Virus record (IMG/VR): IMGVR_UViG_3300028840_008180
Span: 28,083 to 92,082 of that record
Direction: 5' to 3' (one strand)
DNA: 64,000 nucleotides
Origin: a virus
Shown: in pieces, positions 4,169 to 28,767 of the stretch
How the letters are laid out: the number at the start of each line of letters is the position of its first letter
How positions within the stretch are numbered: position 1 is the stretch's first letter
Notes under the pieces: generated by a model
Seen by the model: only the letters and a program-made list of their open reading frames with translations
Told to the model about the DNA's origin: nothing
The model's database searches: none
Translations under genes and position numbers: made by a program

Positions 4169-7100
4169 CTAACCGATCCTTCTGGTGAAGCCATTTTGCT
4201 TCTGTACCATGATGGTTCTGACACCATCAAGCATCTGTCGAAGATGGGTGTTGTGAGTAACAACAAAGACTTGTTTTTCCTTCGCCAACTCACAGATAGT
4301 TTGGTAGATGCTTCTCACTCCTCGCTGGTCGATACTGTCAGAAACCTCGTCAAGGAAAACGAGGGATGGCCATGTTCCACTAGAGAACATCATTACATGA
4401 GCAAACGCCTGGGAGATAGCTAGGTTGATCCGTTTTCGCTCACCACCACATGTGACAGAGTAGCTGTAAGCTTTGCCCTTAATAGGCTTGATGGTGGCAT
4501 CTAAATGTCCATCGAAACTGACCTCCATGCGGCCATCCATCAGGTGTTCCATCCAGTAAGCAATCCTTGCGTTCAATGCCGGTGTAATACCTTCGATGAT
4601 ATAAGAGCGAATACCATTTGGGCCGAATACTTTGATTGCATACTTGTAGTAGGGAATGATTTCTTCTGTCGCCTTTACCTTGACATCTTGATCTTCCTTC
4701 TTCTCGATGATTTCGATAAGGTCTTTGCGAGCTTGTTTCAGAATCTCTACGTAAGGACCACCATCAACTAGTTCATCCTCCTTAGCTTGAATGCTTCTTT
4801 CTGTTTGAGACAGCTTTTCCTTCAGCACCAGTTCTGTTGAGGTGAGGTCAGGTCGTTGCACGCCCCCAAGCTCTTCCAGTCGACTCTTGTCGTTTTGAAT
4901 CGATTTCTTGATTGCATTCAGTTTGATACCAGCAATCCTCTTGAGTTCAGCTAGTTTGGCTAACGTTCCTTCATACTTTGCGATCTCAAGTTTGATGCTA
5001 TCCTTCCGGACTTCATTAGCATTGATCTTTGGTTCCAAATGGTCGATCTTATTGTTGTGAAGTTTGATCACATGCTTGTAGTGTTGTTTGTTAATAGGTC
5101 CATAACAGTGCGGGCACTTGGCACCTTCGGGAAGCTTATTGAGTTTAGCGATCTCTCCCTTGCACTTCTCACGTTCCTTTATCATGTCCCGCATTTCACG
5201 ATCTAGCGATTTGTAGCTAAGTTTCAACTCGTGAATCTTCAAGGAGACCTTGTTGTGATTCTCTTTGGTTTTCTGGAGCGCCTCATCCATGTTGGTCTCT
5301 TTAACGTCCTTATCAGCCAACCCATCTTGAATCGCCACAATTTCATTTTGTGCCCCTTCGTATTCGAGCAACGCCGAGCCGATATCCGTATTTCCGATTT
5401 GACCTTTGAGGACTTCGATTTGACCTTTGAGGGTCTCAATATCTTTGAGACAGTTAGCACGCCACGCTTTGTTTTGTTGCTCAACTTGCGAAATACGATC
5501 AAGGCACGACGCTTCCGATTCCTTGATCTGTTCGTAGGCGGTCATAAGCGATTTCAATTCCGCCTCGGTTGCTTTCAACTCCTTCTTAGCGGTCTCCAAG
5601 TAGTCGTTGTAGACTTCAAGTGACAGAAGGTTCTCGGCAATCGCTCGCTGCTCTTTTGAATCACACTCCAGAAAGTTGTATTCGTTGTGCTGTCCAAAGC
5701 AGACGACGTTCACAAATGCTTTGTGATTCATCTTGAGGATTTCTTCAATTCGCTTCTGCGTGGGTATCTGCCCACCACGACTATCCTCGTTGTTGTTCTT
5801 GGCTGGAGCATCAATCCATGGTGGGCCTCCTTGCCACAATCGGACAGTGTCGGGTTGTCGGGTGCGGACAATCCGGTACCGTACATCGTCGATGCTGAAG
5901 ATGATCTCAACCTCAAGCTTCTTACCTGTCCGGTTGTGGATGGCATCTGTATGCTTAACCTTCTTCCTAATGGTGTTACCATACAAACCGTAGACAACCA
6001 TTTCGGCTATGGTGGAGTTATGTACAACAGTAAAATCGGCCAAGAGAAACAAGTGGTTACCGTCAGTTTGGAAACCATAGTAATTTCCGGTGCCTATTGG
6101 TTGTACCGAAATACCTACCGTTAGCGGGTCTTTGGATTTAGATGTAGGTTGACAAGTTTTACGTGGTACTCTGGTTGGTATTTTTGAACAGTCGCCGCCA
6201 ATATGAACTCGCCAGTAAGTTCCGGTTGCTCCCGTTTGACATTTTTTTTGACATTCTTTGGGGTAAGCTGAGAAGCCTAATGATCTAGCGAGGTAAGCGA
6301 CATCAAATACTAACTTCTTGTTCTTATTTACAAACTCGAAACAGCCGCCGTTAAGGTGCCCATCCGAGTCCATGAGTCCAGCTAAAAGCTCCAAACGTAC
6401 TTGTCTTGAATTAGCCTTGTATTGTAAGGGCACATGTTTGTTGTCTATTAGCTGGTAAGACTTAAGGTCTTTTAGTAAAGAGTTACAATTACGTGGGAAG
6501 CAATCTTTGGGTGATGTGGCTTTATGCTCCATTTGAAGCCATTTACGAACTCTGTCTATCGACCGCCACACAGCGGCAACACTCGGTTTCTCCTCTTGGT
6601 ACCTAGAACAGTACTTCGGATATGATTTTCCAGCCTTCGTGGCAATTTCACTATAACACGCACCATTGAGATGTTGGTTGTAAATGAAAAACTCCGGAGG
6701 GTCGGGGCGAGCATCTAAATTATCACTATGAATGGCTAGGTGCGGAACATCTTTTGAGTTCTTAAATTCACGAACTTGTAAGTTGCGTGATGCTGCCTCG
6801 GTCTTCACCACTTCGTGTACCACCGAGTCAATGTTTGTAATAATGGTTCCGGTCGAATTTCCGTCCCCCAACCAAATACCCAAAAAATACGGATCGATTC
6901 TTATTGGAGCCTTAGGAAAATCTACTGCTGTTCTGTAACCGCCCATTAAGTGCTTAAACGTCTTTGATTGTTTGAGGTAATCCTTGACGCTGATATTGAA
7001 TATTGAAGAGTCCTCTTTGCTTGCGAATTTCGATTTGCTATACCGGTTGTACTTTTTGTCCTTAGTTTTCAACGTTAATATATGAGATTCGTTCACTACA

Positions 7101-7465
7101 TACGAGTCTCCTTTGTTAGGAATGACCCGGTATAGTGGTTCTCGACCACGAGCTAACTTAAGCACTTTGCGGGGTGACGAATCATTTCCCATCACCTCAT
7201 CGCCCACGACTATATCCTCTACCTTTTTGATAGTTCCATCATACATTAAGATGGGTGTGCCCTTACCAAAACATTTCCCCGCAGCATTCGAGTGGTACTC
7301 ATTGCCTGATTCGCTACACTCAAGTTCGTCCCACTCATCTTCATCGTGTAGGTCGAGATTACGACCTTTGATAAGAACGATGTTACCCAGTTCTGTGAAA
7401 TTTATTTCGATAGGTTCTTCGCCGATGCAAAAGAAGTTCTTTGCACGGATGTATTCAATTCTCAT
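4169..7465 (-). CDS. Rad50/SbcC-like recombination ATPase (T4 gp46-like), intein-containing
   Basis: Walker A NAAGK|ST split by an intein, Q-loop FGQ, coiled coil with CPHC zinc hook, CGGE signature, FLDE Walker B, VTH H-loop. Confidence 0.93.
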   Translation of the reverse strand: MRIEYIRAKNFFCIGEEPIEINFTELGNIVLIKGRNLDLHDEDEWDELECSESGNEYHSNAAGKCFGKGTPILMYDGTIKKVEDIVVGDEVMGNDSSPRKVLKLARGREPLYRVIPNKGDSYVVNESHILTLKTKDKKYNRYSKSKFASKEDSSIFNISVKDYLKQSKTFKHLMGGYRTAVDFPKAPIRIDPYFLGIWLGDGNSTGTIITNIDSVVHEVVKTEAASRNLQVREFKNSKDVPHLAIHSDNLDARPDPPEFFIYNQHLNGACYSEIATKAGKSYPKYCSRYQEEKPSVAAVWRSIDRVRKWLQMEHKATSPKDCFPRNCNSLLKDLKSYQLIDNKHVPLQYKANSRQVRLELLAGLMDSDGHLNGGCFEFVNKNKKLVFDVAYLARSLGFSAYPKECQKKCQTGATGTYWRVHIGGDCSKIPTRVPRKTCQPTSKSKDPLTVGISVQPIGTGNYYGFQTDGNHLFLLADFTVVHNSTIAEMVVYGLYGNTIRKKVKHTDAIHNRTGKKLEVEIIFSIDDVRYRIVRTRQPDTVRLWQGGPPWIDAPAKNNNEDSRGGQIPTQKRIEEILKMNHKAFVNVVCFGQHNEYNFLECDSKEQRAIAENLLSLEVYNDYLETAKKELKATEAELKSLMTAYEQIKESEASCLDRISQVEQQNKAWRANCLKDIETLKGQIEVLKGQIGNTDIGSALLEYEGAQNEIVAIQDGLADKDVKETNMDEALQKTKENHNKVSLKIHELKLSYKSLDREMRDMIKEREKCKGEIAKLNKLPEGAKCPHCYGPINKQHYKHVIKLHNNKIDHLEPKINANEVRKDSIKLEIAKYEGTLAKLAELKRIAGIKLNAIKKSIQNDKSRLEELGGVQRPDLTSTELVLKEKLSQTERSIQAKEDELVDGGPYVEILKQARKDLIEIIEKKEDQDVKVKATEEIIPYYKYAIKVFGPNGIRSYIIEGITPALNARIAYWMEHLMDGRMEVSFDGHLDATIKPIKGKAYSYSVTCGGERKRINLAISQAFAHVMMFSSGTWPSLVFLDEVSDSIDQRGVRSIYQTICELAKEKQVFVVTHNTHLRQMLDGVRTIMVQKQNGFTRRIG
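6017..7273 (-). mobile_element. intein (419 aa) with LAGLIDADG homing endonuclease
   Basis: Starts CFGKGT, has block B VNESH, LAGLIDADG-type LGIWLGDG and LAGLMDSDG, ends VVHN followed by Ser+1. Confidence 0.95.
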
Positions 7466-9509: not shown

Positions 9510-9583
9510 GGTACGGTAGCTCAGTCCGGTAGAGCACTTGGTTGAAGCCCAGGGTGTCGTCGGTTCAATTCCGACCCGTGCCA
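9510..9583 (+). tRNA. tRNA-Phe(GAA)
   Basis: Cloverleaf GGTACGG/CCGTGCC; anticodon loop TTGAAGC; T-loop TTCAATT. Confidence 0.93.
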
Positions 9584-9661
9584 CTTGCGGGAATGCCCGA
9601 AGGGATTACATTTCCAGAAAAGATGGTGACAGTCTCTTCATTGTTTTGTCCCGCACAAGTT

Positions 9662-9674
9662 TGATCTTTGACAA
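9662..9674 (+). promoter_or_regulatory. rrn-type boxA antitermination element
   Basis: TGATCTTTGACAA matches the boxA consensus (G[A/C/T]TCTTT[G/A]A[C/A]A); lies between tRNA genes and is flanked by hairpins. Confidence 0.65.
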
Positions 9675-9733
9675 TTTGGTAAACTCAGTGATCTTCGTGC
9701 CAAATCCAGGGCGTGCGAAAGTGCGCCCTATTT

Positions 9734-9815
9734 GGGTCGGCATCCCATTGGTGAGGGAAGCAGTCTGTAAAACTGTGGTCTAACGACTTTGGTGGTTCAA
9801 TTCCACCCCGGCCCA
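9734..9815 (+). tRNA. tRNA-Tyr(GTA)
   Basis: GGGTCGG/CCGGCCC; loop CTGTAAA; long variable arm. Confidence 0.93.
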
Positions 9816-9821
9816 CTTAAG

Positions 9822-10187
9822 CTATGATTGATCGGCTTGCCACGGCATGCCGGTGTATTTGGCAAACTCCTCATCGGACATTTGGTCACCCAGCTTGGTC
9901 GGATTGTAGCCGAGGGACTTGAGACGCCACATTTCGGCCTCTACGTCTTCGGCACCATGACGGGCCATATCGTCCCAGTGAAGTGTTTTGAGTTCGGGAG
10001 ATTCGCTAGCGTTCATTACGTCGCCGCCGAAATCGTCTGCTGCGTTGTGAAGCTGGTACTCGGGTGGGGGAACATCACCAAGAGAGCGATTTGTTTGATC
10101 TACGGTGTTTATCTCACCGGTGTTATCATCCGGCTCCGAGTCGGACTGATTTTCCATTCGGTCGTGGTAACTTTGAAAACTGAACAT
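9822..10187 (-). CDS. acidic hypothetical protein
   Basis: ORF starting 5 nt after TATATA; MFSFQSY N-terminus. Confidence 0.65.
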   Translation of the reverse strand: MFSFQSYHDRMENQSDSEPDDNTGEINTVDQTNRSLGDVPPPEYQLHNAADDFGGDVMNASESPELKTLHWDDMARHGAEDVEAEMWRLKSLGYNPTKLGDQMSDEEFAKYTGMPWQADQS

Positions 10188-10222
10188 GGGGGTATATAGC
10201 TGCTAGCTCGATAAATAGATCG

Positions 10223-10822
10223 ATGCGATACAGCCAATTTGGACAAGATGAGTGGGTTCTGAAGACCATCCCTGATGGGAAGTACTTCGTGGATATCGGC
10301 GCAGGCGACGGCATTAGATTCAGCAACACGTTTGCCCTTGAGCGGGCCGGTTGGAAAGGTATCTGCGTCGAACCCCACTTGGCACAATACAGAAAGCTGC
10401 GGCAAAACAGGAGATGCCACCGGTGCCGCTACGCAGTAGCGGCACGAAGCAACACGATGGTGCCCTTTTGGGAAGGCTTGGGTGGCCTCAACGGACTGTC
10501 GGGAATAGTGGGATATTTTCAAGATGACCATCGGCGAAACCCATCAAAGGGCCGAATAGTAGCCAGGAAGACAATATCGCTGGTTGATCTTTTGAAGAAG
10601 TTCGGCGCACCTGAGGCAATCGACTATCTAAGCATCGACACAGAGAACTCTGAATACATGATCTTGAAGGCTTTCGATTTCTCATACACCTTCAAGAGTA
10701 TCACGATTGAGCACAACAACCTCGAAAAGAAGCGTGAGGCAACGAAGAGGTTGCTCGAATCTCACGGTTACAAACGAGTTGGTATACTTGAGGTCGACGA
10801 CCTATATCTTTACGATCACTAG
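10223..10822 (+). CDS. FkbM-family methyltransferase
   Basis: YSQFGQD, FVDIGAGDG, SNT, GWKGICVEP, IDYLSIDTE. Confidence 0.9.
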   Translation: MRYSQFGQDEWVLKTIPDGKYFVDIGAGDGIRFSNTFALERAGWKGICVEPHLAQYRKLRQNRRCHRCRYAVAARSNTMVPFWEGLGGLNGLSGIVGYFQDDHRRNPSKGRIVARKTISLVDLLKKFGAPEAIDYLSIDTENSEYMILKAFDFSYTFKSITIEHNNLEKKREATKRLLESHGYKRVGILEVDDLYLYDH

Positions 10823-10904
10823 GCCCTGTGGTGGAATGCTAGACACGGCTGGCTTAAACCCAGTTGCCCGTATGGGCGTGCAGGTTGGAATCCTGCCAGG
10901 GCTA
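10822..10904 (+). tRNA. tRNA-Leu(TAA)
   Basis: GGCCCTG/CAGGGCT; loop CTTAAAC; long variable arm; atypical T-loop TTGGAAT. Confidence 0.9.
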
Positions 10905-11035
10905 CTTGTTTTCACACGAAATCACTAACGAAAGGAGAAACACTCGGTTCCTGATGCTCTGGCGGCTGCGTAGGCCGAAAAGATCAGAGATTGGGCAGAC
11001 GGGCCGATTCACCCCCAACACTGTTGGAGGTTATC

Positions 11036-12205
11036 ATGAGCGAGAAAACTCATGTAAACGTCGGTACCATCGGTCACATCGACCATGGTAAAACAACTCT
11101 TACGGCTGCGATCTTGGCGGTCCAGGCAAGTAAGGGTCTAGCAATTAAGGTTCCCTATGGCAAGATTGCTACTGGCGGAATCGTCCGTGACGATCAGAAG
11201 GTTGTTACGGTAATCACGAGTCACGTTGAGTATGAGACAGAGGACAGGCATTACGCCCATATCGACTGTCCAGGCCACGCAGATTACGTCAAGAACATGA
11301 TCACGGGTGCGGCCCAGATGGACGGGGCAATTTTGCTCGTCTCTGCCGCAGATGGGCCGGAACCCCAGACTCGGGAACACGTTCTGTTGGCAAGACAGGT
11401 CGACGTTCCGAACATCGTTGTCTTCCTGAACAAGTGCGATCTTGTGGAGGACGAGGAATTGATCGAACTGGTCGAGTTGGAAGTCAGAGACCTGTTGACC
11501 GAGTACGGATTCGATGGCGACAATGCCACGGTTGTCCGAGGTAACGCCAAGGGCGCAATGGATGACCCAGAGAACCAGGGTGAGTGCATCACAGAGTTGA
11601 TGAACGCCTTGGGCAAGAACATCCCAGAGCCAATCCGGCAACTCGACAAGCCGTTTATGATGGCTATTGAAGGAGTCTACTCCATCGTTGGCCGAGGAAC
11701 GGTAGTCACTGGTAAGATCGAGCAGGGCAAAGTACAGCCCGGTGATAAGGTGGAGGTCGTAGGTCTGCAAGATAGATCAGAAACGGTCTGCACAAGCATC
11801 GAGCAGTTCAACAAGCAACTGCCTGAAGGGAAAGCTGGTCAGAATGTTGGATGCCTGCTTCGGGGTGTCAAGCATGACGAGGTCCAGCGAGGGCAAGTGC
11901 TGTCGGCTATCAACGCCATACAGCCCTACACTCGATTCAAGGCAGAGACCTATGTTCTGGGTAAGGAAGAGGGCGGAAGGCATACACCGTTCTTCGGTGG
12001 TTACAAGCCCCAGTTCTTCTTCCGAACAACAGACGTGACAGGCATAGTCAATCTGGTGGACGCCGAAATGGTGATGCCAGGAGACCATGTTACGGTAGAA
12101 GTTGAGCTAGATAAACCCGTTGCCCTTTACAAGGGGAACAGATTCGCTGTCCGTGAGGGCGGCAGGACGGTTGGCTCCGGTCGTGTGATCGAAGTCCTAG
12201 CGTGA
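11036..12205 (+). CDS. tuf: elongation factor Tu
   Basis: [53 protein letters not shown]; GGAGG RBS. Confidence 0.98.
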
Positions 12206-12238
12206 GATTACGAGCCTTAGCTTCGGCTAGGGCTCTAC

Positions 12239-12327
12239 GGAAGCGAGGCAAATAATGGTTCGTTGCGGCACTCTGCTAAAGTGTTCCGGGGTAACAGCCG
12301 GTGCTGGTTCAATTCCAGTCGCTTCCG
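12239..12327 (+). tRNA. tRNA-Ser(GCT)
   Basis: GGAAGCG/CGCTTCC, G73; loop CTGCTAA; long variable arm. Confidence 0.9.
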
Positions 12328-12331
12328 CTTT

Positions 12332-12413
12332 GGATAGGATGGTGGTTGGCTCACCAAACGGTCCCGAAAACTGTACCTCGTAAGAGGCCAGAGTTCGATT
12401 CTCTGCCTATCCG
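12332..12413 (+). tRNA. tRNA-Ser(CGA), atypical (C33)
   Basis: GGATAGG/CCTATCC, G73; loop CCCGAAA; long variable arm. Confidence 0.75.
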
Positions 12414-12418
12414 CTTAC

Positions 12419-12502
12419 GGAAGTGATCCGGCTGGATGAGGAGCGAATTTTGAAAGTTCGTGGGTGTAAAAAGCCTTTAGGGTTCGAGTCCCTACGCTTC
12501 CG
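12419..12502 (+). tRNA. tRNA-Ser(TGA)
   Basis: GGAAGTG/CGCTTCC, G73; loop TTTGAAA. Confidence 0.88.
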
Positions 12503-12513
12503 CTTGGAGGAAA

Positions 12514-12687
12514 ATGGAACTAGAAGAACACAAAAAAATGCTAATCAAGAACGTTGAGTGTCTTAGAGACAAGTGGCACCGTGTCGATATGGGTCACAAC
12601 AAGATGATCGAAAACATCAAAAAAGCCCAAGCTCTCGAAGAGCTACAAGCTATCGAAACGATTTACAGTACTTGGTTAGATGCTTAG
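12514..12687 (+). CDS. 57-aa hypothetical protein, paralog of the next ORF
   Basis: Not in the ORF track. GGAGG RBS; MELEEHKKMLIKNVECLRDKWHRVDMGHNKMIENIK...WLDA. Confidence 0.75.
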   Translation: MELEEHKKMLIKNVECLRDKWHRVDMGHNKMIENIKKAQALEELQAIETIYSTWLDA

Positions 12688-12694
12688 GAGGAAC

Positions 12695-12868
12695 ATGACA
12701 TTTGAAGAGGATAAGAAGCCGCTGATCGATTTGATTACATGGTATCGAGACAAATGGCATAAGGGTGACTTCGGTCACACTGAAATGATCGAGAAGATCA
12801 AGGAAACCGACGATCCGAAATTACTGGAATTGTATTGGAAGATTACGGATGGTTGGTTAGATTACTAA
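12695..12868 (+). CDS. 57-aa hypothetical protein
   Basis: GGAGG RBS; shares RDKWH.GH..MIE.IK...WLD with the previous ORF. Confidence 0.75.
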   Translation: MTFEEDKKPLIDLITWYRDKWHKGDFGHTEMIEKIKETDDPKLLELYWKITDGWLDY

Positions 12869-12869
12869 T

Positions 12870-12955
12870 GGCCTCGTGCCGGAACAAGGTAGACGGACCA
12901 GACTGAGATTCTGGGGAGCGTTACGCTCGTGCAGGTTCGATTCCTGTCGAGGCCA
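12870..12955 (+). tRNA. tRNA-Leu(GAG)
   Basis: GGCCTCG/CGAGGCC; loop CTGAGAT; long variable arm. Confidence 0.92.
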
Positions 12956-12960
12956 CTTAT

Positions 12961-13040
12961 GGCGGTGTACGCAAAATGGTAAAGCGGCAGTACTCAAAAT
13001 GCTGTGATGTTGTTTGTCGGTTCGAGTCCGACCACCGCTA
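12961..13040 (+). tRNA. tRNA-Leu(CAA)
   Basis: GGCGGTG/CACCGCT; loop CTCAAAA. Confidence 0.88.
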
Positions 13041-13044
13041 CTTT

Positions 13045-13119
13045 GGCGAGGTAGCCCAATAGGTAGAAGGCGGTAGTTTCAAGAACTACAGGTTGCGGGT
13101 TCGACTCCCGCCCTCGCTA
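13045..13119 (+). tRNA. tRNA-Leu(CAA), short variable loop
   Basis: GGCGAGG/CCTCGCT; loop TTCAAGA; variable loop AGGTT. Confidence 0.85.
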
Positions 13120-13124
13120 CTCAC

Positions 13125-13199
13125 GCCGGGGTAGCCCAACTGGCAGAAGGCGCATGATTTAGGATCATGAGGTTGAGGGTTCGACTCCCTCCCCCGGTA
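13125..13199 (+). tRNA. tRNA-Leu(TAG), short variable loop
   Basis: GCCGGGG/CCCCGGT; loop TTTAGGA; variable loop AGGTT. Confidence 0.85.
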
Positions 13200-13204
13200 C
13201 TTAT

Positions 13205-13290
13205 GGCCTTGTGTCGGAATAGGTAGACGAGTGGCGCTCAGACCGCCATGGGTGTAATTGCCCGTGCAGGTTCGATTCCTGTCAAGGCCA
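13205..13290 (+). tRNA. tRNA-Leu(CAG)
   Basis: GGCCTTG/CAAGGCC; loop CTCAGAC; long variable arm. Confidence 0.92.
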
Positions 13291-13292
13291 CT

Positions 13293-13712
13293 TTATCGTT
13301 TGATAGGAATAGCCCACGGAGTTTCTGGGATTTCTTCAGCGGCAGCAAGAGCGTCTTCAACGGCTTGTCGCATGTCGGGGCCGATGCCCTTCATGACCCA
13401 TTCCTTTTTGCTTGGGTCAGCTTTGATTCGCTTGACGTACTCCGCTACTTTGTCTCGTTTGATAGGAATAGCCCACGGAGTTTCTGGGATTTCTTCAGCG
13501 GCAGCAAGAGCGTCTTCAACGGCTTGTCGCATGGCGGGGCCTAAGCCCTGCATGACCCATTCCTTTTTGCTTGGGTCAGCTTTGATTCGCTTGACGTACT
13601 CCGCTACTTTGTCTCGTGCTCCAGCAGCGATGCCCGCACCCATGTCTCCAAATGCTCCTTTGATATCCCCGTAGCTGCGAGTTTCTAACCATTCATTGAA
13701 TGAGCGTCTCAT
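13293..13712 (-). CDS. hypothetical protein with a 53-aa tandem duplication and capsid-targeting-like N-terminus
   Basis: MRRSFNEWLE start with GGAGG RBS and upstream TATATA. Confidence 0.75.
   Translation of the reverse strand: MRRSFNEWLETRSYGDIKGAFGDMGAGIAAGARDKVAEYVKRIKADPSKKEWVMQGLGPAMRQAVEDALAAAEEIPETPWAIPIKRDKVAEYVKRIKADPSKKEWVMKGIGPDMRQAVEDALAAAEEIPETPWAIPIKR
13296..13617. repeat. 159-bp near-perfect tandem duplication
   Basis: Copies start at 13296 and 13455. Confidence 0.95.
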
Positions 13713-13749
13713 TTCATACCTCCACGGTATATATGGCCTTGCGTCGGGA

Positions 13750-14319
13750 TTAGTAGTACCTGAAATCATTCGCATGCCTCTTGCGAATGATTTCTTTCAA
13801 CTGAGGTGTGAGAAGTTTTTTGAATATCGCTGATCGGGTTGTATTCTTTCTCCTAATCGCCTTAGGTGGTGGTAACCCAATACGTTTGAAGACCTGGGGG
13901 ATGGCATCTTCTATGTTCTCCAAACGTATGACAACATCAACAAGCGATCTCCCCTGCTTATCACATGTGAAAGCTTTGATGTCTACGAAGTGCTTGTAAC
14001 GCTTATTGCGAACATAGGTGTCGAAATCACACCGGGCGGACGCCATGTTTCGCTTTTTCTCAAAAGCGAAACATGACAGAATGCGGTCGAAGGGGTTTCG
14101 GATCGTTGTAAAGACGAAATAGTCGCCCCATCTCCGTCCGGTTTTCTCAATAAATTGCTTTACCTTGTAGGCAGCATCGTGCCGACCCACCGGTTTTGCC
14201 CGCAAACCCTGGTCGTAGACCCGACATTTATAGGCTCGAAAGTGCGAGTGCAGGCTGCTAGAGCCGCATTTCTGATTGGCCAGAAAGATGAACTTGTGAG
14301 TGTGAGATATAACGGTCAT
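13750..14319 (-). CDS. sulfotransferase family 2 protein
   Basis: KFIF..QKCGSSS (5'-PSB-like), TIRNPFDRILS (3'-PB), IRLEN, C-terminal D..F.Y. Confidence 0.8.
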   Translation of the reverse strand: MTVISHTHKFIFLANQKCGSSSLHSHFRAYKCRVYDQGLRAKPVGRHDAAYKVKQFIEKTGRRWGDYFVFTTIRNPFDRILSCFAFEKKRNMASARCDFDTYVRNKRYKHFVDIKAFTCDKQGRSLVDVVIRLENIEDAIPQVFKRIGLPPPKAIRRKNTTRSAIFKKLLTPQLKEIIRKRHANDFRYY

Positions 14320-14379
14320 ATCAGTATTTACCCCAGACGGCATATCCGTTAGGATATTAAGGGGTAAAAGGAGGATGGT

Positions 14380-14772
14380 ATGATCATCAAAGAAGTCGAA
14401 GTCGTCATCAATGTGGAATACGGAGGTTTCTCTCTTGATACAGAGATGGCCCTCTGGTTGATGGAGAACAAGGGGTGGACGAGCACAAACGTCGACAGTG
14501 GTGAGGATGAGACCGAGTTCGATTTGATATCACTCGGTGATATGTTCCTCCGCTCGAAGAAATACGACGAGGTCGGGTTCAGAATGAACCCCGACCTCGT
14601 CGAGTGCGTTAAAACCCTCCAAAAGAAACACGAAGGTACGAATTGGTCTGGTGTTGCATACAACGACATCCCAAAGGTCTTGCAATTAAATGTCGTTCAT
14701 GTAGAGGTTCACCTTACCGTCGAGCCTGTGTATGACGGCATTGAGAATATAGCATGTTGGTCCAAGATGTAG
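14380..14772 (+). CDS. hypothetical phage protein
   Basis: GGAGG RBS; VVINxxYGGFSL N-terminus. Confidence 0.75.
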   Translation: MIIKEVEVVINVEYGGFSLDTEMALWLMENKGWTSTNVDSGEDETEFDLISLGDMFLRSKKYDEVGFRMNPDLVECVKTLQKKHEGTNWSGVAYNDIPKVLQLNVVHVEVHLTVEPVYDGIENIACWSKM

Positions 14773-14855
14773 CCAGGATGACGGAATTGGTAGACGACAA
14801 TCGCTTAGAACGATTGGTCCGTAAGGGCGTGCGAGTTCGAGTCTCGCTCCTGGCA
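14772..14855 (+). tRNA. tRNA-Leu(TAG)
   Basis: GCCAGGA/TCCTGGC; loop CTTAGAA; long variable arm. Confidence 0.92.
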
Positions 14856-14859
14856 CTTA

Positions 14860-15000
14860 CTAGATAAACCCGAATACTCTGAGAAATACAAGGGTACTGA
14901 ATAAAGCTGCTGCGGCTGAACCAATGGTTCGGATTAGTTCCATTGTGTGGTTGTGCTTGTTCAACCACGTCTCGACTCGATTTCTACGATGGTCTGTCAT
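14860..15000 (-). CDS. 46-aa membrane peptide
   Basis: AGGAGG RBS; MTDHRRNRVETWLNKHNHTMELIRTIGSAAAALFSTLVFLRVFGFI. Confidence 0.65.
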   Translation of the reverse strand: MTDHRRNRVETWLNKHNHTMELIRTIGSAAAALFSTLVFLRVFGFI

Positions 15001-15064
15001 AAACACCTCCTACTAGTATTATACTGTCGTTGTTAATAAAACTTAAGGGTGCAAGGAGAGGGAA

Positions 15065-15487
15065 ATGTCAGTGAAGAAGATTACGGTAAAGAGATTGGAG
15101 TGGTCGGAACTGAAGGATAGTCAAAGACATCGAATCAGGAAAAAGGTCGCTCGCCACGCTTCTGAAGTACAGGCTAAGCACAACTACATGAAGCGACTGA
15201 AGCGATCCCGAACAACCAGTGATGCTCCCTATGTACTTCTTCCTAAGAGTGTGATCAAGCCGAAGAACGGCTTTTGGGTTGTCTGGCGGCGGTTAGGCAC
15301 CGAGGCTGTTGTCACTCGTCGGACATTGGTTCACAAGGTGACGTGGGAGTTATACGGCCCACGGGAGAATGGTGTCCGATTTGTTCTAAAGGCACCCTTT
15401 CCAGTGAATGTCACCTGTACTCAGGATAGGAAGGTTTGGGAGGATTTTGCCGCTTCGTTGTCGGTAGGTCATCGATTGGGAAACTAG
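15065..15487 (+). CDS. basic hypothetical protein
   Basis: ORF with RBS. Confidence 0.65.
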   Translation: MSVKKITVKRLEWSELKDSQRHRIRKKVARHASEVQAKHNYMKRLKRSRTTSDAPYVLLPKSVIKPKNGFWVVWRRLGTEAVVTRRTLVHKVTWELYGPRENGVRFVLKAPFPVNVTCTQDRKVWEDFAASLSVGHRLGN

Positions 15488-15498
15488 CGAATTTACGC

Positions 15499-15526
15499 TA
15501 AAGTCTCGTAAACTATCTGCCGATAC
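15499..15526 (+). promoter_or_regulatory. sigma28-like promoter
   Basis: TAAAGTCT...GCCGATAC with TAAA-N16-GCCGAT spacing. Confidence 0.8.
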
Positions 15527-15545
15527 AAGCGATAGGAGAAAAGTT

Positions 15546-15830
15546 ATGGGAATACCAGCTTACGGAGACGTACTGACTCGTAAAGTGACTTTGCCCAACA
15601 AGCAAGTCCTGAGTATCGGTGTTTTGACAGCCCATGTTGGGGTCGGCGCAGTGCCGGAATTGACGGTCTCACTTCAAGACGAAGGTGGAATTGCTACCGC
15701 TTCACTGAAGACCGCCCTCAATTCAACCAATGATCTTCGATACGTTGCCAACATGTTGAATCAGGTGGCAACACGTATCGATCAGGTCAACGAAGAGGCC
15801 AAGGACGATTACTACGAAGAAGATGAGTGA
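15546..15830 (+). CDS. hypothetical protein
   Basis: ORF with AGGAG RBS. Confidence 0.7.
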   Translation: MGIPAYGDVLTRKVTLPNKQVLSIGVLTAHVGVGAVPELTVSLQDEGGIATASLKTALNSTNDLRYVANMLNQVATRIDQVNEEAKDDYYEEDE

Positions 15831-16043
15831 TCCCAATAGCGACAATACTGACAGTACTTGCTATAGTACCACGTCTGTCGCTTACAAATTGGGCAAATAC
15901 GTGTCCTGTCAGCGATCCGTTTTGCACGTCGTCGTAGTAGTATCCGTTTAAGCCACCGGAGCATTGGGCATCTCAGCCTTCATTGCTATCTATAATCGGC
16001 ACAAGAAAGTGAAACGGAGTAGAAGAAAAACGTTAGGAAATAC

Positions 16044-16127
16044 GGAATCGAAGCGAATTGGCTAAGCAGCCTATCTCGAAAGTAGGTGCGGGTAACACCG
16101 TTGGGAGTTCGAGTCTCCCCGATTCCG
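16044..16127 (+). tRNA. tRNA-Ser(CGA)
   Basis: GGAATCG/CGATTCC, G73; loop CTCGAAA. Confidence 0.88.
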
Positions 16128-16175
16128 CTTAAAGGTTAAGGTGAGATTGGTAGGAAATTATCGGGAGAATGAAAA

Positions 16176-16316
16176 ATGGAATGGCTTGGTAATTGGATCG
16201 CCGCTTGGTTAGACATGATCTGTGGTTTCATCTCGGTGGTTACCTTGTGCATCTGGCGTCCGTGGTGGGATTTCCAGTTTCGTGCGTATTGGGCAAATAA
16301 AATACTCCGGAAGTGA
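16176..16316 (+). CDS. 46-aa Trp-rich hydrophobic peptide
   Basis: MEWLGNWIAAWLDMICGFISVVTLCIWRPWWDFQF...; overlaps the 5' end of the next tRNA. Confidence 0.45.
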   Translation: MEWLGNWIAAWLDMICGFISVVTLCIWRPWWDFQFRAYWANKILRK

Positions 16317-16388
16317 AGCGAATGGTTAGCAAGCCGGTTGGAAGCCGGTCGCCCTCACGGGTTGCAGGTTCGACTCCTGTCACTTCCG
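16309..16388 (+). tRNA. tRNA-Ser(GGA)
   Basis: GGAAGTG/CACTTCC, G73; loop TTGGAAG. Confidence 0.88.
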
Positions 16389-16400
16389 CTTATGATCTCC

Positions 16401-19231: not shown

Positions 19232-19654
19232 ATGCGATTCGGCCAATGGCTCCTACTCAACGAAGTTCCGCACAAGACACTCAGAGTGCCTATCGAATAC
19301 GAGGGTAACTTCATCATGATCATTGATCTGAAAGTGGAGGATTGGCGGATTGATGAAGAGGATGAAGAGACAAAGCTTATCCAACGCCGGTTGATGATGG
19401 CCCTACCGCCACCACCACCATACTACGGCTTCATACCCGATTCCGGTGGCCGCTATCTTTATTATGACGGAAACGAGGAGTATCGCTTTGAGCTTACCAG
19501 AACCGAACCATCTAGGGGAATCAACCTAGACGAGTTGAATATCGGAGGCTCCTGGTGGGATTATGTCGAGGGAGTAGACCAGGACAATAACATGGTTAAG
19601 AAACCGTCACCACCAATACCCTCTCGTATCCCTCAAAGGGTCCGTACCCAGTAG
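19232..19654 (+). CDS. hypothetical protein with capsid-targeting-like N-terminus
   Basis: MRFGQWLLLNE; GGAG RBS. Confidence 0.7.
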   Translation: MRFGQWLLLNEVPHKTLRVPIEYEGNFIMIIDLKVEDWRIDEEDEETKLIQRRLMMALPPPPPYYGFIPDSGGRYLYYDGNEEYRFELTRTEPSRGINLDELNIGGSWWDYVEGVDQDNNMVKKPSPPIPSRIPQRVRTQ

Positions 19655-20661
19655 TGGTTCTTCCGATATCCGTCGTCATCACGTAGCCTGTGTCGGTACG
19701 CTTGTCGCTCTAAAAGCCGGTTGATGAATGCTCTGGCGTCTTTTGGTGGCTCGCACCTCAAAAGAGAAGCAAACTGCGCCCGATCCGCCACCTTCTCAAA
19801 GGTTAAACCCTTCTGGGTGAAGATGTCTTCTCCATAAGTGAAAACGGGTCTCTCAACCAACATCGCCTCCAGAACACTTGTGGAGTTGATAGCCACCATC
19901 GCTTTCATGTGTTGGTACAAGTCTAGCTTATTGATCTTCGCTTTAGAAATGTCTACCATGCCTGACGGCACCCGTGTTGGCTTGTTATTTGCCGGGTGAT
20001 TCTTGACTAGGATTTTGATGCCAGGGGGCACAACCTTCCTAATGTGCTCAAGAAATTGATGGTTGTTTTTGAATGGGGTGAAACGGAACTTGAAGTCTGG
20101 CTTCCCGTCACTCGTAGGCGTATCCACTTGTAGCGGCACGTAAATATAGTCTCTGTAACCTACAGCGCTGCCCACGTTCCACTTGTTCTTGATGTACTTG
20201 TACTCCACTGGATTGTCAGGAGCGCCTCGTAACTCTGTTATTCCCGCCTGTCGGATGGAGGATAACGGCCCTGCACCTTGGTCGTCAATGTAGAAACACT
20301 CGTTCCACGGCAACCAACCGTACTCGGAGAAGAGAAATTTGGCCTTAATCTTGTTCTGCAACCACTTACCCGTGTCGTCATTGCCGTTTCCCAGACAGAT
20401 GTAATCGGAATCGAGCTTGCCAATTTGGTCGGCTAACTGGCTATGACTAGACCACGACCGGTTCGGAAGGTCGGTGAGTTTCGTGACAATGCTGTTCCTG
20501 ACAGATGGTTTGTACTTACCTGTCTTAAACCACCCTTTTCTGGCAATAGAGGAGTGCCAGAGCACACCCACGACCTCATGTTCCGTGGAACGGAACATGA
20601 GGTCGAAATCGCATGCGTTGATGCTATATCGTTTCGTTGCAATGATGATTATTTTAGACAT
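19633..20661 (-). CDS. KpsS/KpsC-like capsule-synthesis glycosyltransferase
   Basis: EYGWLP, YVPLQV.., VK.HP, INSTS.LEA motifs. Confidence 0.75.
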   Translation of the reverse strand: MSKIIIIATKRYSINACDFDLMFRSTEHEVVGVLWHSSIARKGWFKTGKYKPSVRNSIVTKLTDLPNRSWSSHSQLADQIGKLDSDYICLGNGNDDTGKWLQNKIKAKFLFSEYGWLPWNECFYIDDQGAGPLSSIRQAGITELRGAPDNPVEYKYIKNKWNVGSAVGYRDYIYVPLQVDTPTSDGKPDFKFRFTPFKNNHQFLEHIRKVVPPGIKILVKNHPANNKPTRVPSGMVDISKAKINKLDLYQHMKAMVAINSTSVLEAMLVERPVFTYGEDIFTQKGLTFEKVADRAQFASLLRCEPPKDARAFINRLLERQAYRHRLRDDDGYRKNHYWVRTL

Positions 20662-20673
20662 AGGAGATTTCTT

Positions 20674-21348
20674 CTACGCAACAGCCACGATATCCATAAG
20701 TGTGTAATCAAACAAAACATTGATGAAATCGCATGGCTCGGAAGCATCGCCTGCCCAGCCAACGCTGTCACAACCACTACCACCCGTGTTGAAATTGGTT
20801 ACACAATTACCATTAGAGCCCGATGTATAGATTTGGAAATCGAGACGGGCGTATGTTAGGTCTGGGTAACAAATTGTCGTTGCCCCAAGGGCTGTACCGG
20901 TTGATCCATTGCTAAGCAATTCTACAACAATGGCAGATGTTCCACACGGTAAACCACTAGTTGATCCATAGTAACACCCTGCTGTGGGAGGTTGGTTGGT
21001 GAAGGCTCCGGACCACGAGGCGTTGAGTGTATCGACTTGCGTTTGGGTTAGTTGTGGGCATGCCCAAGCGGCGGCAAAGTCGTCACAGTTGCCACTGCAA
21101 CCGTTGCCGCTTCCGCCGAGGTTTGTGCCGGTACCGAAGGTAACTGTTATACTTGATGGCGTCGTATCTGTATCGCAAAGACCACATGTAAGGCCAGCCG
21201 GTGGTGGTGCTGGTCCTGTTGGGCACGTACATTCTGCGCAACAATGCCCACAACAGCAGCACTCAAGAAATGCCTGTGAGCCGCAGATACAGTCCTGAAG
21301 CTGCTGCGCAAACCCACTCATATCAAATCTCATGCCAACCATAATCAA
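20674..21348 (-). CDS. Cys/Gly/Thr-rich protein, possibly virion-associated
   Basis: CCCCGHCC tract; more than 20 Cys. Confidence 0.6.
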   Translation of the reverse strand: MIMVGMRFDMSGFAQQLQDCICGSQAFLECCCCGHCCAECTCPTGPAPPPAGLTCGLCDTDTTPSSITVTFGTGTNLGGSGNGCSGNCDDFAAAWACPQLTQTQVDTLNASWSGAFTNQPPTAGCYYGSTSGLPCGTSAIVVELLSNGSTGTALGATTICYPDLTYARLDFQIYTSGSNGNCVTNFNTGGSGCDSVGWAGDASEPCDFINVLFDYTLMDIVAVA

Positions 21349-22058
21349 CTCCTAGCTAAGTACTTATGCCAAACTTCTTCAAATTCCTCGTACCCCCTTT
21401 CACCGCCCAACCATGGTTTTTTTCCGACAAAGTGCAGCCCAATGTAATCCCGGTTCCTTTTGGCGAGACGTTTCGTCGTATTCCATTTCATTGGTAATCG
21501 GGTGAGGGTGAAACATTTTCGGCGTATCGCCTGCATCAGAACCGTTTGGTCTGCGAGGTGTGCCCTCTTCATAGTACTCATTAACTTGATGATCTTGTCA
21601 TAAACGGTGGGTTTGAGTTTGTTTAAGAGGATCAACCCGCTGTTGTATTCCCGATGGCTTGCGTGGTAGACAAACCCCGCTTCTGTTCGGAGCTTCATAT
21701 CCAGCAACGGTTGAATCGAATCCACAAACACCATATCCGAGTCGATGAAGAGGAGTCGGTCGTAACTGCACACTAATCTAAAAATCTCCAACTTGAAGAA
21801 TGCATTTTTCAGTGGTGGTGTGTGCTTTGGAAGTTGCCTATACTTTGATCGGTCGGGTTGAATGAATTGACATCGTGGATAGGTCTTGAGGCAGAGATTT
21901 CGATCCTTCTCGGTCAGGTCGATATCCAAACACAACATGGTTTCATCAAAACCCTTAGTGTGCATCTGGATGCTGTTCATCAGGGCTCGAAACCCAGGAA
22001 GGAATTTACTTGTAAGTACGGTGCAAACACACTTCATAAACCTACCGTCTCGTGCCAA
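21345..22058 (-). CDS. glycosyltransferase family 8
   Basis: KLEIF, LFIDSD, NSG, DQ, HFVG.KPW. Confidence 0.85.
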   Translation of the reverse strand: MARDGRFMKCVCTVLTSKFLPGFRALMNSIQMHTKGFDETMLCLDIDLTEKDRNLCLKTYPRCQFIQPDRSKYRQLPKHTPPLKNAFFKLEIFRLVCSYDRLLFIDSDMVFVDSIQPLLDMKLRTEAGFVYHASHREYNSGLILLNKLKPTVYDKIIKLMSTMKRAHLADQTVLMQAIRRKCFTLTRLPMKWNTTKRLAKRNRDYIGLHFVGKKPWLGGERGYEEFEEVWHKYLARS

Positions 22059-23113
22059 ATTTGCCTAATATGCCCATCGAAATACGGCTTAAGTTCCGTG
22101 TATCGATGTTGTATCTGTTCTCCCAACTCTCCGATGCGGGCAACATGATCCTCAACTTGATCTTCGATATCCCTATCGGTAAGCTTCAATACTCTTCCGC
22201 CTCCCCTGTAAAGGAGATTATCACCGTCCACTTTACAACTCTTTGAGGCGATTGGGAGGAATGGGCATCCAGAAAGGAAGGACATGACTGTTCCGTGGTG
22301 TCGGCCTGTGATGTTCAGAGATGCTTGTGAGCACAGCCGGATATAGTCTTTGAAGTAGACCACATTGACACGCTCCACCGGTAATTTGTATCGTTTCATG
22401 AACTCGTTGAAAAACACATCATCGCCCTTGATCATGCTGGGCCAGCCAACCAGAACAATTTCGTATTGGTGCTTGTACTGTAGCAACTGATCAACGATTC
22501 TCTTGTATCCCTTCATCGCCACGTCAGTGGACACGGTTTTCAAACATGTCCCACCACCAACCATAATGATATTATCTCGCCACGTATCAGCTTTTTTGTG
22601 CGTGCAGGTAAGGTCGGGGAAGAGCTTAACTTTGGGGAATAGGGGTTTCACTCGGTCGAATGACATGGGCTCCCGCACGCTTACGCCGACGCAGTCGGCG
22701 TAAGCGTGCTGTGCTTGCCTGTTGTTCCCCTTACTGTGGATATTGTGCGTGTAGTTCACCATGTAGGTTTTTACGCCTGCGTTTTTTGCCTTGTGGATGA
22801 GTGAGAAGATTCCCTTCGAGACGTTGGAAAGGCGATCTTTGCTATACTCGCCCATTCCGCCCTCACCGTTGATGATCATGAAGTCGTAATTCTGAATACT
22901 CAATCCACCGGTGGTACGGGTGATGCTTTTCCCGCCACGGTAAACACGTTCTCTCATTGTGATCCGCCGCCCGTTGAGGAGCGACCGGAGGGTGATACAG
23001 TCTATGTCTGTTTCTGGCTGGTATTTCAGGATGTTCTCGTACAACGCCGCCGTGTTTGCTTGGCAGCCCAGATTTGGGTTGGTAGAAGTATCACAAGTAA
23101 GCAAAATTCGCAT
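22034..23113 (-). CDS. polysaccharide pyruvyltransferase family protein
   Basis: NLGC, INGEG, SVREPMS, PD, TGRHHG. Confidence 0.8.
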   Translation of the reverse strand: MRILLTCDTSTNPNLGCQANTAALYENILKYQPETDIDCITLRSLLNGRRITMRERVYRGGKSITRTTGGLSIQNYDFMIINGEGGMGEYSKDRLSNVSKGIFSLIHKAKNAGVKTYMVNYTHNIHSKGNNRQAQHAYADCVGVSVREPMSFDRVKPLFPKVKLFPDLTCTHKKADTWRDNIIMVGGGTCLKTVSTDVAMKGYKRIVDQLLQYKHQYEIVLVGWPSMIKGDDVFFNEFMKRYKLPVERVNVVYFKDYIRLCSQASLNITGRHHGTVMSFLSGCPFLPIASKSCKVDGDNLLYRGGGRVLKLTDRDIEDQVEDHVARIGELGEQIQHRYTELKPYFDGHIRQIWHETVGL

Positions 23114-23151
23114 TGATAACTCCTTCTGTATATAGCCAGGAGATTTGAACA

Positions 23152-23781
23152 ATGGGATTTGATTACAGCCAACCTTACAAGTATTGGAACAATCGTTTCG
23201 AGGAACAGGGGCAGGAGTATGTAGCTCACCGCCAGCTTCGGAACTACGACAAGCAGAAGGAGATCATCGGTAATGCCGTGAGGCCATTCCTGGTGAAGCG
23301 GTCTAAGACCTTGGACTTTGGTAGTGGTGTTGGTCGCTTCCAAGACATGTTGTGGCGGCATTCGGATGAGGTCTACGCATTGGATTATGTCAAAGGTGCT
23401 TTGGGAATCTTGAAGGAGAGTTGGCCTCAGACGGAGACGGTATGCCATGGTCACTTACCGCTCCCGTTTAGCACCGGGACATTTGACCTCATTTGGACGT
23501 GTACGGTGTTGCAGCATATTGTGGAGCAGGATTACTTCGAGGGGACGTGCAGAGAACTCTACCGTATCGCTGCTCCTGGTGGGAATTTCCTGATGGTTGA
23601 GAATGTCTCAGATGATGCGCCGCATGTTAAGCCGAGGGCCGCTCTCGATTACGCAGAAGCGATAGGTTTCGATCCGATGCACATTGAGAAGATATCGGTC
23701 GACCACAAGGATAGTCACTGGGTGATTTACGGTCGCAAACCTATACCCGCATGCATCTCCAACAATTCGACTTGCTTATGA
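23152..23781 (+). CDS. class I SAM-dependent methyltransferase
   Basis: LDFGSGVGR, LPF...FDLI....VLQH. Confidence 0.88.
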   Translation: MGFDYSQPYKYWNNRFEEQGQEYVAHRQLRNYDKQKEIIGNAVRPFLVKRSKTLDFGSGVGRFQDMLWRHSDEVYALDYVKGALGILKESWPQTETVCHGHLPLPFSTGTFDLIWTCTVLQHIVEQDYFEGTCRELYRIAAPGGNFLMVENVSDDAPHVKPRAALDYAEAIGFDPMHIEKISVDHKDSHWVIYGRKPIPACISNNSTCL

Positions 23782-28350: not shown

Positions 28351-28767
28351 ATGCGATTCGAGGAATACTACAAACGACGGCTAGACGAGGATAAAGCAGG
28401 TCCACATAAACCCGCCCGTTCCAATGTAGCCTACGAGTTGGGTGTGGCGGCAGCTACTGGTACGTTGGCGGGGAGTAAGATACAGGGTAAGAACATCATA
28501 GTCCAGAAACTCCGTCCGGTGGTAATGGATGCTTTCAGGATATTCCGCCGAAAGGGTTTCCACCCACAGGATATCGAAGAGATGCTTTTGGATAGCTTGC
28601 GATTGGCCATTCTCTACACGAGTGCTGAAGGTGGCATCCGAGGTGGTTACAAGAGCAGCATGCCAGTTGCGGAGTTCATGCGTCGTAGCAAAAAGAAACA
28701 CGCTGGTTATAAATCGCTAGATAAAGACGAAGATACGCCAGAAGAACCCGAACCCGATCTTGAATGA
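28351..28767 (+). CDS. hypothetical protein with capsid-targeting-like N-terminus
   Basis: MRFEEYYKRRLDE, 4 nt after TACCTA. Confidence 0.65.
   Translation: MRFEEYYKRRLDEDKAGPHKPARSNVAYELGVAAATGTLAGSKIQGKNIIVQKLRPVVMDAFRIFRRKGFHPQDIEEMLLDSLRLAILYTSAEGGIRGGYKSSMPVAEFMRRSKKKHAGYKSLDKDEDTPEEPEPDLE

Follow-up and report, generated by a model that had tools for sequence, protein, structure and literature searches.

Why do the tRNA genes of a phage fragment depart so consistently from the usual tRNA body? The question is raised by a 64,000-nucleotide stretch (the window) that corresponds to bases 28083-92082 of the 92-kb IMG/VR virus fragment IMGVR_UViG_3300028840_008180. A block of 14 tRNA genes in this window, which also encloses a gene for elongation factor Tu (EF-Tu), had been described in an earlier note as systematically non-canonical, and the variants had been suggested to escape nucleases or toxins that recognise the host versions. 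tRNA L-arrays are known to spread by horizontal transfer and to add supernumerary genes, Bacteroidetes included (PMC8421152; arrays also in PMC4758250). Based on our analysis, the block is probably a functional, phage-borne member of this horizontally mobile L-array tRNA pool. Because the odd shapes, which are present in the window and are conserved and covarying among its relatives, are also distributed over bacterial arrays and related huge phages, we regard them as inherited family traits and not as proven anti-nuclease devices.

A block of 14 tRNA genes with viral relatives

All 14 genes are encoded by the plus strand, between positions 9510 and 16389 (Table 1). Thirteen were called by ARAGORN with default settings, and the fourteenth, Ser-TGA at 12419-12503, was called at -ps90. 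The block comprises Phe, Tyr, seven Leu genes with all five anticodons and five Ser genes with all four anticodons; no further convincing tRNA was seen elsewhere in the 92-kb record. Its density is 2.0 per kb (14 genes in 6.9 kb, in the same orientation), in a record with a CheckV completeness of only about 18%. The published criterion for a tRNA array unit is at least 20 tRNA genes at a minimum of 2 per kb (PMC4758250). ARAGORN drew unbroken acceptor, anticodon and T stems in all 14 genes. With the Rfam tRNA model (RF00005, gathering threshold 29 bits), 12 of the 14 passed at 33-64 bits, and Ser-CGA 12332 and Ser-TGA 12419 were below the threshold.

Relatives were searched for with the EF-Tu protein. 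This search gave ten viral contigs (L001-L010) of 49-533 kb, one of them rated complete and the large ones measuring 436-533 kb, whose EF-Tu is 65-68% identical to the copy in the window. The neighbourhood of Phe, Tyr, Leu and Ser genes with EF-Tu is common to L002-L010 and L034. A distant search of the block against phage databases gave only EF-Tu and single-tRNA matches and no related annotated phage.

Short-arm Leu tRNAs keep a leucine identity set

Two Leu tRNAs, 13045 (CAA) and 13125 (TAG), had been reported to have a variable loop of 5 nt, with longer arms in second copies of the same anticodons. Both genes are indeed 76 nt long with the loop AGGTT, and with 64 and 61.8 bits they are among the best Rfam scores of the window. 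A longer arm was confirmed for the second TAG copy at 14772, which has a 4-bp arm, but not for the second CAA copy at 12961, where the 10 nt of the variable region are unpaired. The class II Leu feature, a variable stem-loop of at least 10 nt, is present in 10822, 12870, 13205 and 14772 and absent from 13045, 13125 and 12961. A form similar to 12961 was found at L003:7216. Short Leu tRNAs of 73-77 nt occur in most of the EF-Tu relatives, and across the clade they cover all five Leu anticodons.

An alignment of 19 unique short Leu tRNAs (A1) was analyzed for covariation. The cloverleaf pairs were standard in 97.4% of cells, and changes on both sides were observed in 19 of 20 pairs. As controls, the alignment was shuffled or slid. 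None of 500 shuffles matched the real values, and the slid controls were paired in 35-46%. T8, A73 and U48, the last base of the variable loop, were invariant (19/19). The leucine identity elements of Escherichia coli are A73, the A15-U48 Levitt pair, G18 G19 and A20a of the D-loop (PMC9976931). The combination of A73, U48 and an AA..GGYARA D-loop was found in 18 of 22 short and 24 of 27 long phage Leu tRNAs, and all 83 phage tRNAs of other isotypes lacked it. Judged by these elements, the short phage Leu tRNAs keep the E. coli-type leucine identity set.

These data bear on a possible recoding of sense codons, in which the type-I genes would descend from another isotype and UUG and CUA would be translated as something other than Leu. 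The nearest neighbours of 13045, with short Leu excluded, do include Pro, Cys and Asp tRNAs. However, A73, U48 and the Leu-type D-loop are all kept and G3.U70 is lacking, among long tRNAs 13125 comes closest to a type-II Leu, and the same body serves as the sole Leu-UAA decoder in an actinobacterium (see below). In Streptomyces coelicolor a type-I tRNA-Leu(CAA) is leucylated by its own leucyl-tRNA synthetase (LeuRS), although not by E. coli LeuRS (PMC6614811). Recoding is thus highly improbable. Whole-sequence nearest neighbours were also tried as an isotype test, but stem drift dominates and the test was uninformative for 13045; identity-element counts were used instead. The nearest relatives of 13125 are 75-nt Leu(TAG) genes of Bacteroidota arrays.

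Ser tRNAs with A8 follow the ordinary fold

As the earlier note had stated, all five Ser tRNAs carry A8. Elsewhere in the window T8 is found in all Leu genes and in Phe, and C8 in Tyr. The one-nucleotide acceptor/D linker described for four Ser genes was not reproduced, since ARAGORN draws linkers of 2-3 nt in the four Ser genes called at -ps95. In 12419 the direct passage from A8 into the D stem was read manually from the sequence and not from an ARAGORN drawing.

For 12239 and 16309, an 8-bp acceptor with a 4-bp T stem had been put forward as an alternative. A8 would then form the eighth acceptor pair, similar to allo-tRNAs or tRNA-Sec. With U as N65, both genes allow an 8/4 drawing; several copies in L002, L003 and L006 likewise have a U65 that allows A8-U65. 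In addition, the tRNA-Sec model is the best Rfam match of 12419, but its score of 27.3 bits is far under the cut-off of 47 bits. In the clade, A8 was found in 21 of 30 unique Ser tRNAs. Positions 49 and 65 were pairable in 20 of these 21 (G.U, G-C, U-A, C-G or A-U), in contrast to A8 and N65, which could pair in only 10. Thus position 65 varies (U, C, G, A) in step with 49 and not with 8, while A8 stays fixed, and this argues for the ordinary 7/5 fold. The 8/4 fold was not upheld, and the chance that it is formed appears to be very small.

Some of the Ser genes could point to decay, by which redundant duplicates would drift to pseudogenes. The anticodon loop of 12332 is CCCGAAA and contains the C33 that had been claimed for it. 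With an imperfect D stem, no match to the Rfam tRNA model and a duplicate at 16044, this gene may be impaired. Gene 12419 is visible only at the relaxed ARAGORN threshold, and 16044 and 16309 combine 2-bp D stems with low Rfam scores (33-36 bits). Against decay, the acceptor, anticodon and T stems are whole and the N73-C-T trailer of the clade is retained in each of the 14 genes, and the covariation in the short Leu family is strong. Furthermore, the relatives carry orthologues of the odd Ser bodies in which the stem changes are compensated. The orthologue of 12419 lies at L003:9504, and the body orthologous to 16309 at L003:9768. Decay was scored only as at least one of the 14 genes being non-functional, which is conceivable but somewhat unlikely.

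Anticodon loops and the elbow pair

The anticodon loops bore out the departures at position 37 that had been listed earlier, namely A37 in Leu GAG, CAG and TAG (14772) and G37 in Phe and Leu CAA (13045). A37 follows G36 in the three former genes, and G37 follows A36 in the two latter. The T-loop TTGGAAT of Leu-TAA 10822 is likewise present and corresponds to G56. What had been overlooked is the D-loop of the same gene, which reads GAATGCTAGA where its orthologues have GAATTGGTAGA, so that G18 C19 stands in place of G18 G19. Since C19 of the D-loop compensates G56, the elbow pair of this tRNA is inverted (G19-C56 to C19-G56) and not broken. G56 was seen in only 2 of the 902 unique tRNAs surveyed.

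The same bodies occur in bacterial chromosomes

The 21-base D-arm of Ser-GCT 12239 (A8 G9, 4-bp stem, 11-nt loop) was used as a query for exact matches. Hits came from 27 viral contigs and 105 species-representative genomes, the latter nearly all Bacteroidota. The genomes include Chryseobacterium, Aquimarina and other Flavobacteriaceae, Saprospiraceae and Chitinophaga. Of the bacterial loci, 80 were examined. The matched gene was always a tRNA-Ser(GCT), and with a median of about 11 tRNAs per 8 kb most of the loci are long arrays. C8 was found in 25 and T8 in 2 of the other Ser genes of these arrays, and the Tyr genes had C8 in 27 and T8 in 23 cases. All 79 unique Leu genes were short (74-81 nt, variable region of at most 8 nt), with no long-arm copy among them. 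G37 in Phe and Leu-UAA and A37 in Leu-UAG were frequent here too.

Two of these genomes allowed a comparison with housekeeping tRNAs. Scattered through the complete genome of Pontimicrobium are nine Leu, Ser and Tyr genes of canonical form (U8, type-II Leu, G37 in CUN and A37 in UUR decoders). The odd forms are extra copies in a 21-gene array, whose neighbours are ordinary genes of the chromosome (RecJ, OmpA, OsmC); no phage genes were seen in its surroundings. Chitinophaga agrisoli showed the same split between canonical scattered genes and odd array copies. The proposal that the variants differ from the host versions therefore holds for the housekeeping tRNAs of the likely host phylum in these two Bacteroidota genomes, but not for the extra copies in the same genomes, which share the features.

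A second pattern, the D-arm of the short Leu tRNAs, gave at least 120 loci. Among the matches listed, 116 carry a tRNA-Leu of 74-77 nt (L272-L391; example in Table 1). Most of the listed matches are single genes of Actinomycetota and some are from Planctomycetota; others lie within arrays of Cyanobacteria, Myxococcota, Actinomycetota and a Hyphomicrobiaceae metagenome-assembled genome (MAG). One Herbiconiux genome has only 46 tRNAs, and its single gene for Leu-UAA is of the 75-nt type-I form. The chromosomal arrays, the other viral contigs and this actinobacterial housekeeping gene contradict the idea that the variants are inventions of the phage. Almost all bacterial tRNA-Leu are type II according to the authors of the S. 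coelicolor study (PMC6614811), and reviews state that the long arm is always present outside animal mitochondria, which the widespread single type-I Leu genes of Actinomycetota contradict. Short-arm tRNA-Leu is far commoner in bacteria, arrays and phages than recent reviews say.

Current discussion of phage tRNA genes centres on counter-defence, and oddities therefore tend to be read as evasion. According to this explanation, the odd positions (8, 32, 33, 37 and the variable arm) were selected against tRNA-cutting defences or toxins of the host, and two body types per anticodon are carried as insurance. Consistent with it, the variants differ from the housekeeping tRNAs of the two Bacteroidota genomes at exactly these sites, Leu-CAA and Leu-TAG each occur in two body types within the window, and the anticodon-loop flanks differ in 9 of 11 same-anticodon pairs within the clade phages. 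There is also precedent, as resistance to VapC, PrrC, PARIS and retron effectors has been predicted or demonstrated for phage tRNAs with changed loops (PMC10264068, PMC11464382, PMC11555353). tRNA arrays have been termed putative anti-defence systems (PMC12803027), and human SLFN11 reportedly cleaves type II tRNAs (reference cited in PMC13056530). However, the loops do not differ in any consistent direction. Bacterial chromosomes retain these bodies as well and have type-I Leu also as a housekeeping gene, and no RNA repair, tRNase, toxin or anti-defence gene was seen in the annotation of the window. Neither position 8 nor the long arm is a known recognition site of a bacterial nuclease, which also counts against escape. 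We consider nuclease or toxin escape to be an unlikely origin of these bodies.

A mobile tRNA pool as the probable source

The block would then represent the Phe/Tyr/Leu/Ser section of a long tRNA array in a huge phage, and its genes would be working tRNAs. Their odd features (Leu of type I or without an arm, Ser with A8, Tyr with C8, exchanged purines at position 37 and the lack of a gene-encoded CCA) would be heritable marks of tRNA lineages in which selection preserves a functional cloverleaf. These lineages would belong to a mobile pool that huge phages may have in common with supernumerary bacterial L-arrays, most clearly those of Bacteroidota. During infection, the genes would be expressed from one strand, beside the EF-Tu of the phage, and would duplicate the decoding capacity for Leu, Ser, Tyr and Phe; the odd features themselves may add some benefit. 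Leu and Ser identity is independent of the anticodon. For this reason, and because A73, U48 and the AA..GGYARA D-loop persist in the short Leu tRNAs, we propose that the tRNAs are charged by host synthetases.

Several points weigh against this explanation. No LeuRS was found in the relatives, including the complete one of 533 kb; the 92-kb record itself was not searched for synthetases. Leucylation by the LeuRS of the phage host is not guaranteed, since E. coli LeuRS rejects the type-I tRNA-Leu of Streptomyces. The two genes below the Rfam threshold, 12332 and 12419, may work poorly. The sequencing runs in which the sequence was found are all DNA, from marine sediment and seawater, with no RNA run among them. 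A lineage trait may also be compatible with selection for evasion acting across the whole mobile pool. Finally, likeness of the tRNAs points tentatively to Bacteroidota as host, and this assignment is weakened by the nearest neighbours of the type-I Leu tRNAs, which are spread over several phyla, and by an EF-Tu that is equidistant from many. EF-Tu had also been tried as a guide to the host. Its closest bacterial copies are 57-64% identical and come from many phyla, so it was not decisive.

If the mobile pool is indeed the source, inherited marks become the null model that claims of evasion have to beat. The results also offer matched pairs for cleavage and charging assays, namely type I versus type II Leu of the same anticodon and A8 versus U8 Ser(GCT).

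EF-Tu, synthetases and trailers of the clade

The switch I region of the phage EF-Tu is rewritten to IAKGGTxRDxxKxVTI, where the usual form is IDxAPEExxRGITI. The rewritten form is common to all ten close viral relatives. It was also found in a Verrucomicrobia MAG, where tuf has its normal setting between tRNA-Thr and tRNA-Trp and the Ser tRNA has the canonical U8, and in a Bdellovibrionota MAG. Bacteria of the PVC (Planctomycetes, Verrucomicrobia, Chlamydiae) group and a few others have a related but longer form, VAKASESQGRRDPTKILTI.

The synthetases of the relatives comprise IleRS, MetRS, a short ValRS-like protein, a short ThrRS and a SerRS core. In the 533-kb relative (G003), ThrRS lacks the N-terminal domains, the ValRS-like protein has 507 aa and the SerRS-like protein is arm-less; the open reading frame (ORF) that immediately precedes L122:691-1695 in G003 encodes a cpYpsA SLOG protein. 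The complete 533-kb relative also has a 91-nt long-arm tRNA with the anticodon CTA, which reads UAG, adjoining a short Leu-GAG (L004:5221-5311). This tRNA may be an amber suppressor. In L001, EF-Tu lies within a different tRNA block (L001:2445-10509; Met, Lys, Glu, Gly, Gln, Pro, Asn and Asp) and is flanked by 22 further tRNAs. Many anticodons of this block are doubled at differing body lengths (Gln 76/72, Pro 75/72 and Lys 74/84 nt).

Across the clade (window, L001-L010 and L034), the discriminator is followed by C-T in 124 of 142 tRNA genes and never by CCA. All 14 window genes keep N73-C-T, 13 of them as N73-CTT. The commonest trailer in Bacteroidota arrays is C-A (575/870). The C-T trailer may be a clade-specific 3' processing signal.

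A bolder explanation would join these features. The tRNAs would form one ancient mobile parallel set, common to huge phages and L-arrays and independent of the recognition rules of host housekeeping tRNAs. Its hallmarks would be short-arm Leu, non-U8 Ser and Tyr, position-37 swaps that avoid TrmD and MiaA substrates, and a C-U trailer replacing CCA, and in this clade it would travel with its own EF-Tu with the rewritten switch I and with trimmed synthetases. If true, all of these together would be a semi-autonomous translation module that works when host tRNAs are cut, unmodified or depleted. We regard this as quite unlikely.

The phage fragment and the genes around the block

The record is a fragment of a huge marine T4-like phage. 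It carries a T4-like replication module with gp32, a RecA/UvsX-like protein, a DnaB-like helicase, PolA and SbcCD. A prim-pol, a class II ribonucleotide reductase and many sugar-modifying enzymes are also encoded in the window. The SbcC/SMC-like ATPase (4169-7465, minus strand, 1098 aa) is split by an intein with a Hint domain and a LAGLIDADG homing endonuclease. An FkbM-type methyltransferase and a sulfotransferase sit between the tRNA genes, and a run of capsule-synthesis-like genes and of glycosyl-, pyruvyl- and methyltransferases follows downstream (together 10223-10822, 13750-14343, 19633-24749 and 28764-29552). Directly after tRNA-Leu(CAG), a 159-bp unit is repeated twice in tandem with 97% identity (13296-13617), within the minus-strand ORF 13293-13775.

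Table 1. Genes of the tRNA block (window coordinates) and one short tRNA-Leu gene from the pattern search
Feature	Position	Strand	Characteristics
tRNA-Phe(GAA)	9510..9584	+	canonical body, G37 not A37; anticodon loop TTGAAGC; Rfam 63.2 bits
tRNA-Tyr(GTA)	9734..9816	+	type II, C8; ARAGORN; Rfam 50.2 bits
tRNA-Leu(TAA)	10822..10905	+	type II; T-loop TTGGAAT, D-loop GAATGCTAGA; Rfam 51.5 bits
EF-Tu gene	11036..12205	+	complete; Pfam GTP_EFTU and domains D2, D3; within tRNA block
tRNA-Ser(GCT)	12239..12328	+	A8 G9, 4-bp D stem, G49.U65; Rfam 41.6 bits
tRNA-Ser(CGA)	12332..12414	+	A8, C33, weak imperfect D stem; ARAGORN; unmatched by Rfam tRNA model
tRNA-Ser(TGA)	12419..12503	+	A8 then directly 3-bp D stem; relaxed ARAGORN threshold only
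tRNA-Leu(GAG)	12870..12956	+	type II, A37; Rfam 50.9 bits
tRNA-Leu(CAA)	12961..13041	+	81 nt, unpaired 10-nt variable region (intermediate form); Rfam 50.9 bits
tRNA-Leu(CAA)	13045..13120	+	type I, 76 nt, loop AGGTT, G37, G1.U72, A73; Rfam 64 bits
tRNA-Leu(TAG)	13125..13200	+	type I, 76 nt, loop AGGTT, G37, A73; Rfam 61.8 bits
tRNA-Leu(CAG)	13205..13291	+	type II, A37; Rfam 51.9 bits
tRNA-Leu(TAG)	14772..14856	+	type II, 4-bp variable arm, A37; Rfam 43.5 bits
tRNA-Ser(CGA)	16044..16128	+	A8 A9, U33, D stem with only 2 Watson-Crick pairs; Rfam 35.7 bits
tRNA-Ser(GGA)	16309..16389	+	A8 A9, 2-bp D stem, G49.U65; Rfam 33.1 bits
tRNA-Leu, type I	L274:2732-2806		example among short-Leu pattern loci

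Comparison with known systems

Supernumerary tRNAs of phages and of L-arrays as well as bacterial type-I tRNA-Leu are kinds that are already known. In a limited search of the literature on arrays and non-canonical tRNAs, we found neither short-arm Leu nor A8 Ser mentioned for phages or arrays, which does not prove their absence from it.

The phage sets C1 (mycobacteriophage) and T5 of tRNAs with proposed or demonstrated resistance (PMC10264068, PMC11464382, PMC11555353) are similar in that their isoacceptors differ from the host near the anticodon loop. In contrast, the differences in the window reach the body (position 8, variable arm and length of the D stem) and are common to chromosomal arrays. 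We know of no nuclease that matches these body differences.

Allo-tRNAs and tRNA-Sec with 8/4, 9/3 or 8/5 folds (PMC7609411) share with the window Ser tRNAs the Ser-type long arm, G73 and a purine 8 that is sometimes pairable with 65. The window genes differ from them in a covariation that supports the 7/5 fold and in their ordinary Ser anticodons. The type-I tRNA-Leu of animal mitochondria also has no long arm, and A73 is important in it. Unlike these, the phage copies keep the bacterial D/T elbow (G18 G19, T54-C56) and a stable cloverleaf. The type-I tRNA-Leu(CAA) of S. coelicolor has the same 5-nt variable loop and coexists with type-II isoacceptors as well; here, however, the form is phage-borne and found with both CAA and TAG, and U48 of the phage tRNAs stands against C48 in Streptomyces.

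The block shares most with the L-arrays, which also lie on one strand at about 2 genes per kb, are supernumerary, spread horizontally and are often found beside homing endonucleases. Individual tRNA bodies of the window match those of Bacteroidota arrays. It differs from L-arrays in that 14 tRNAs stand in a phage fragment and are interrupted by protein genes, including EF-Tu. Furthermore, in contrast to the Bacteroidota arrays examined, which contain short Leu only, the phage clade mixes type-I and type-II Leu.

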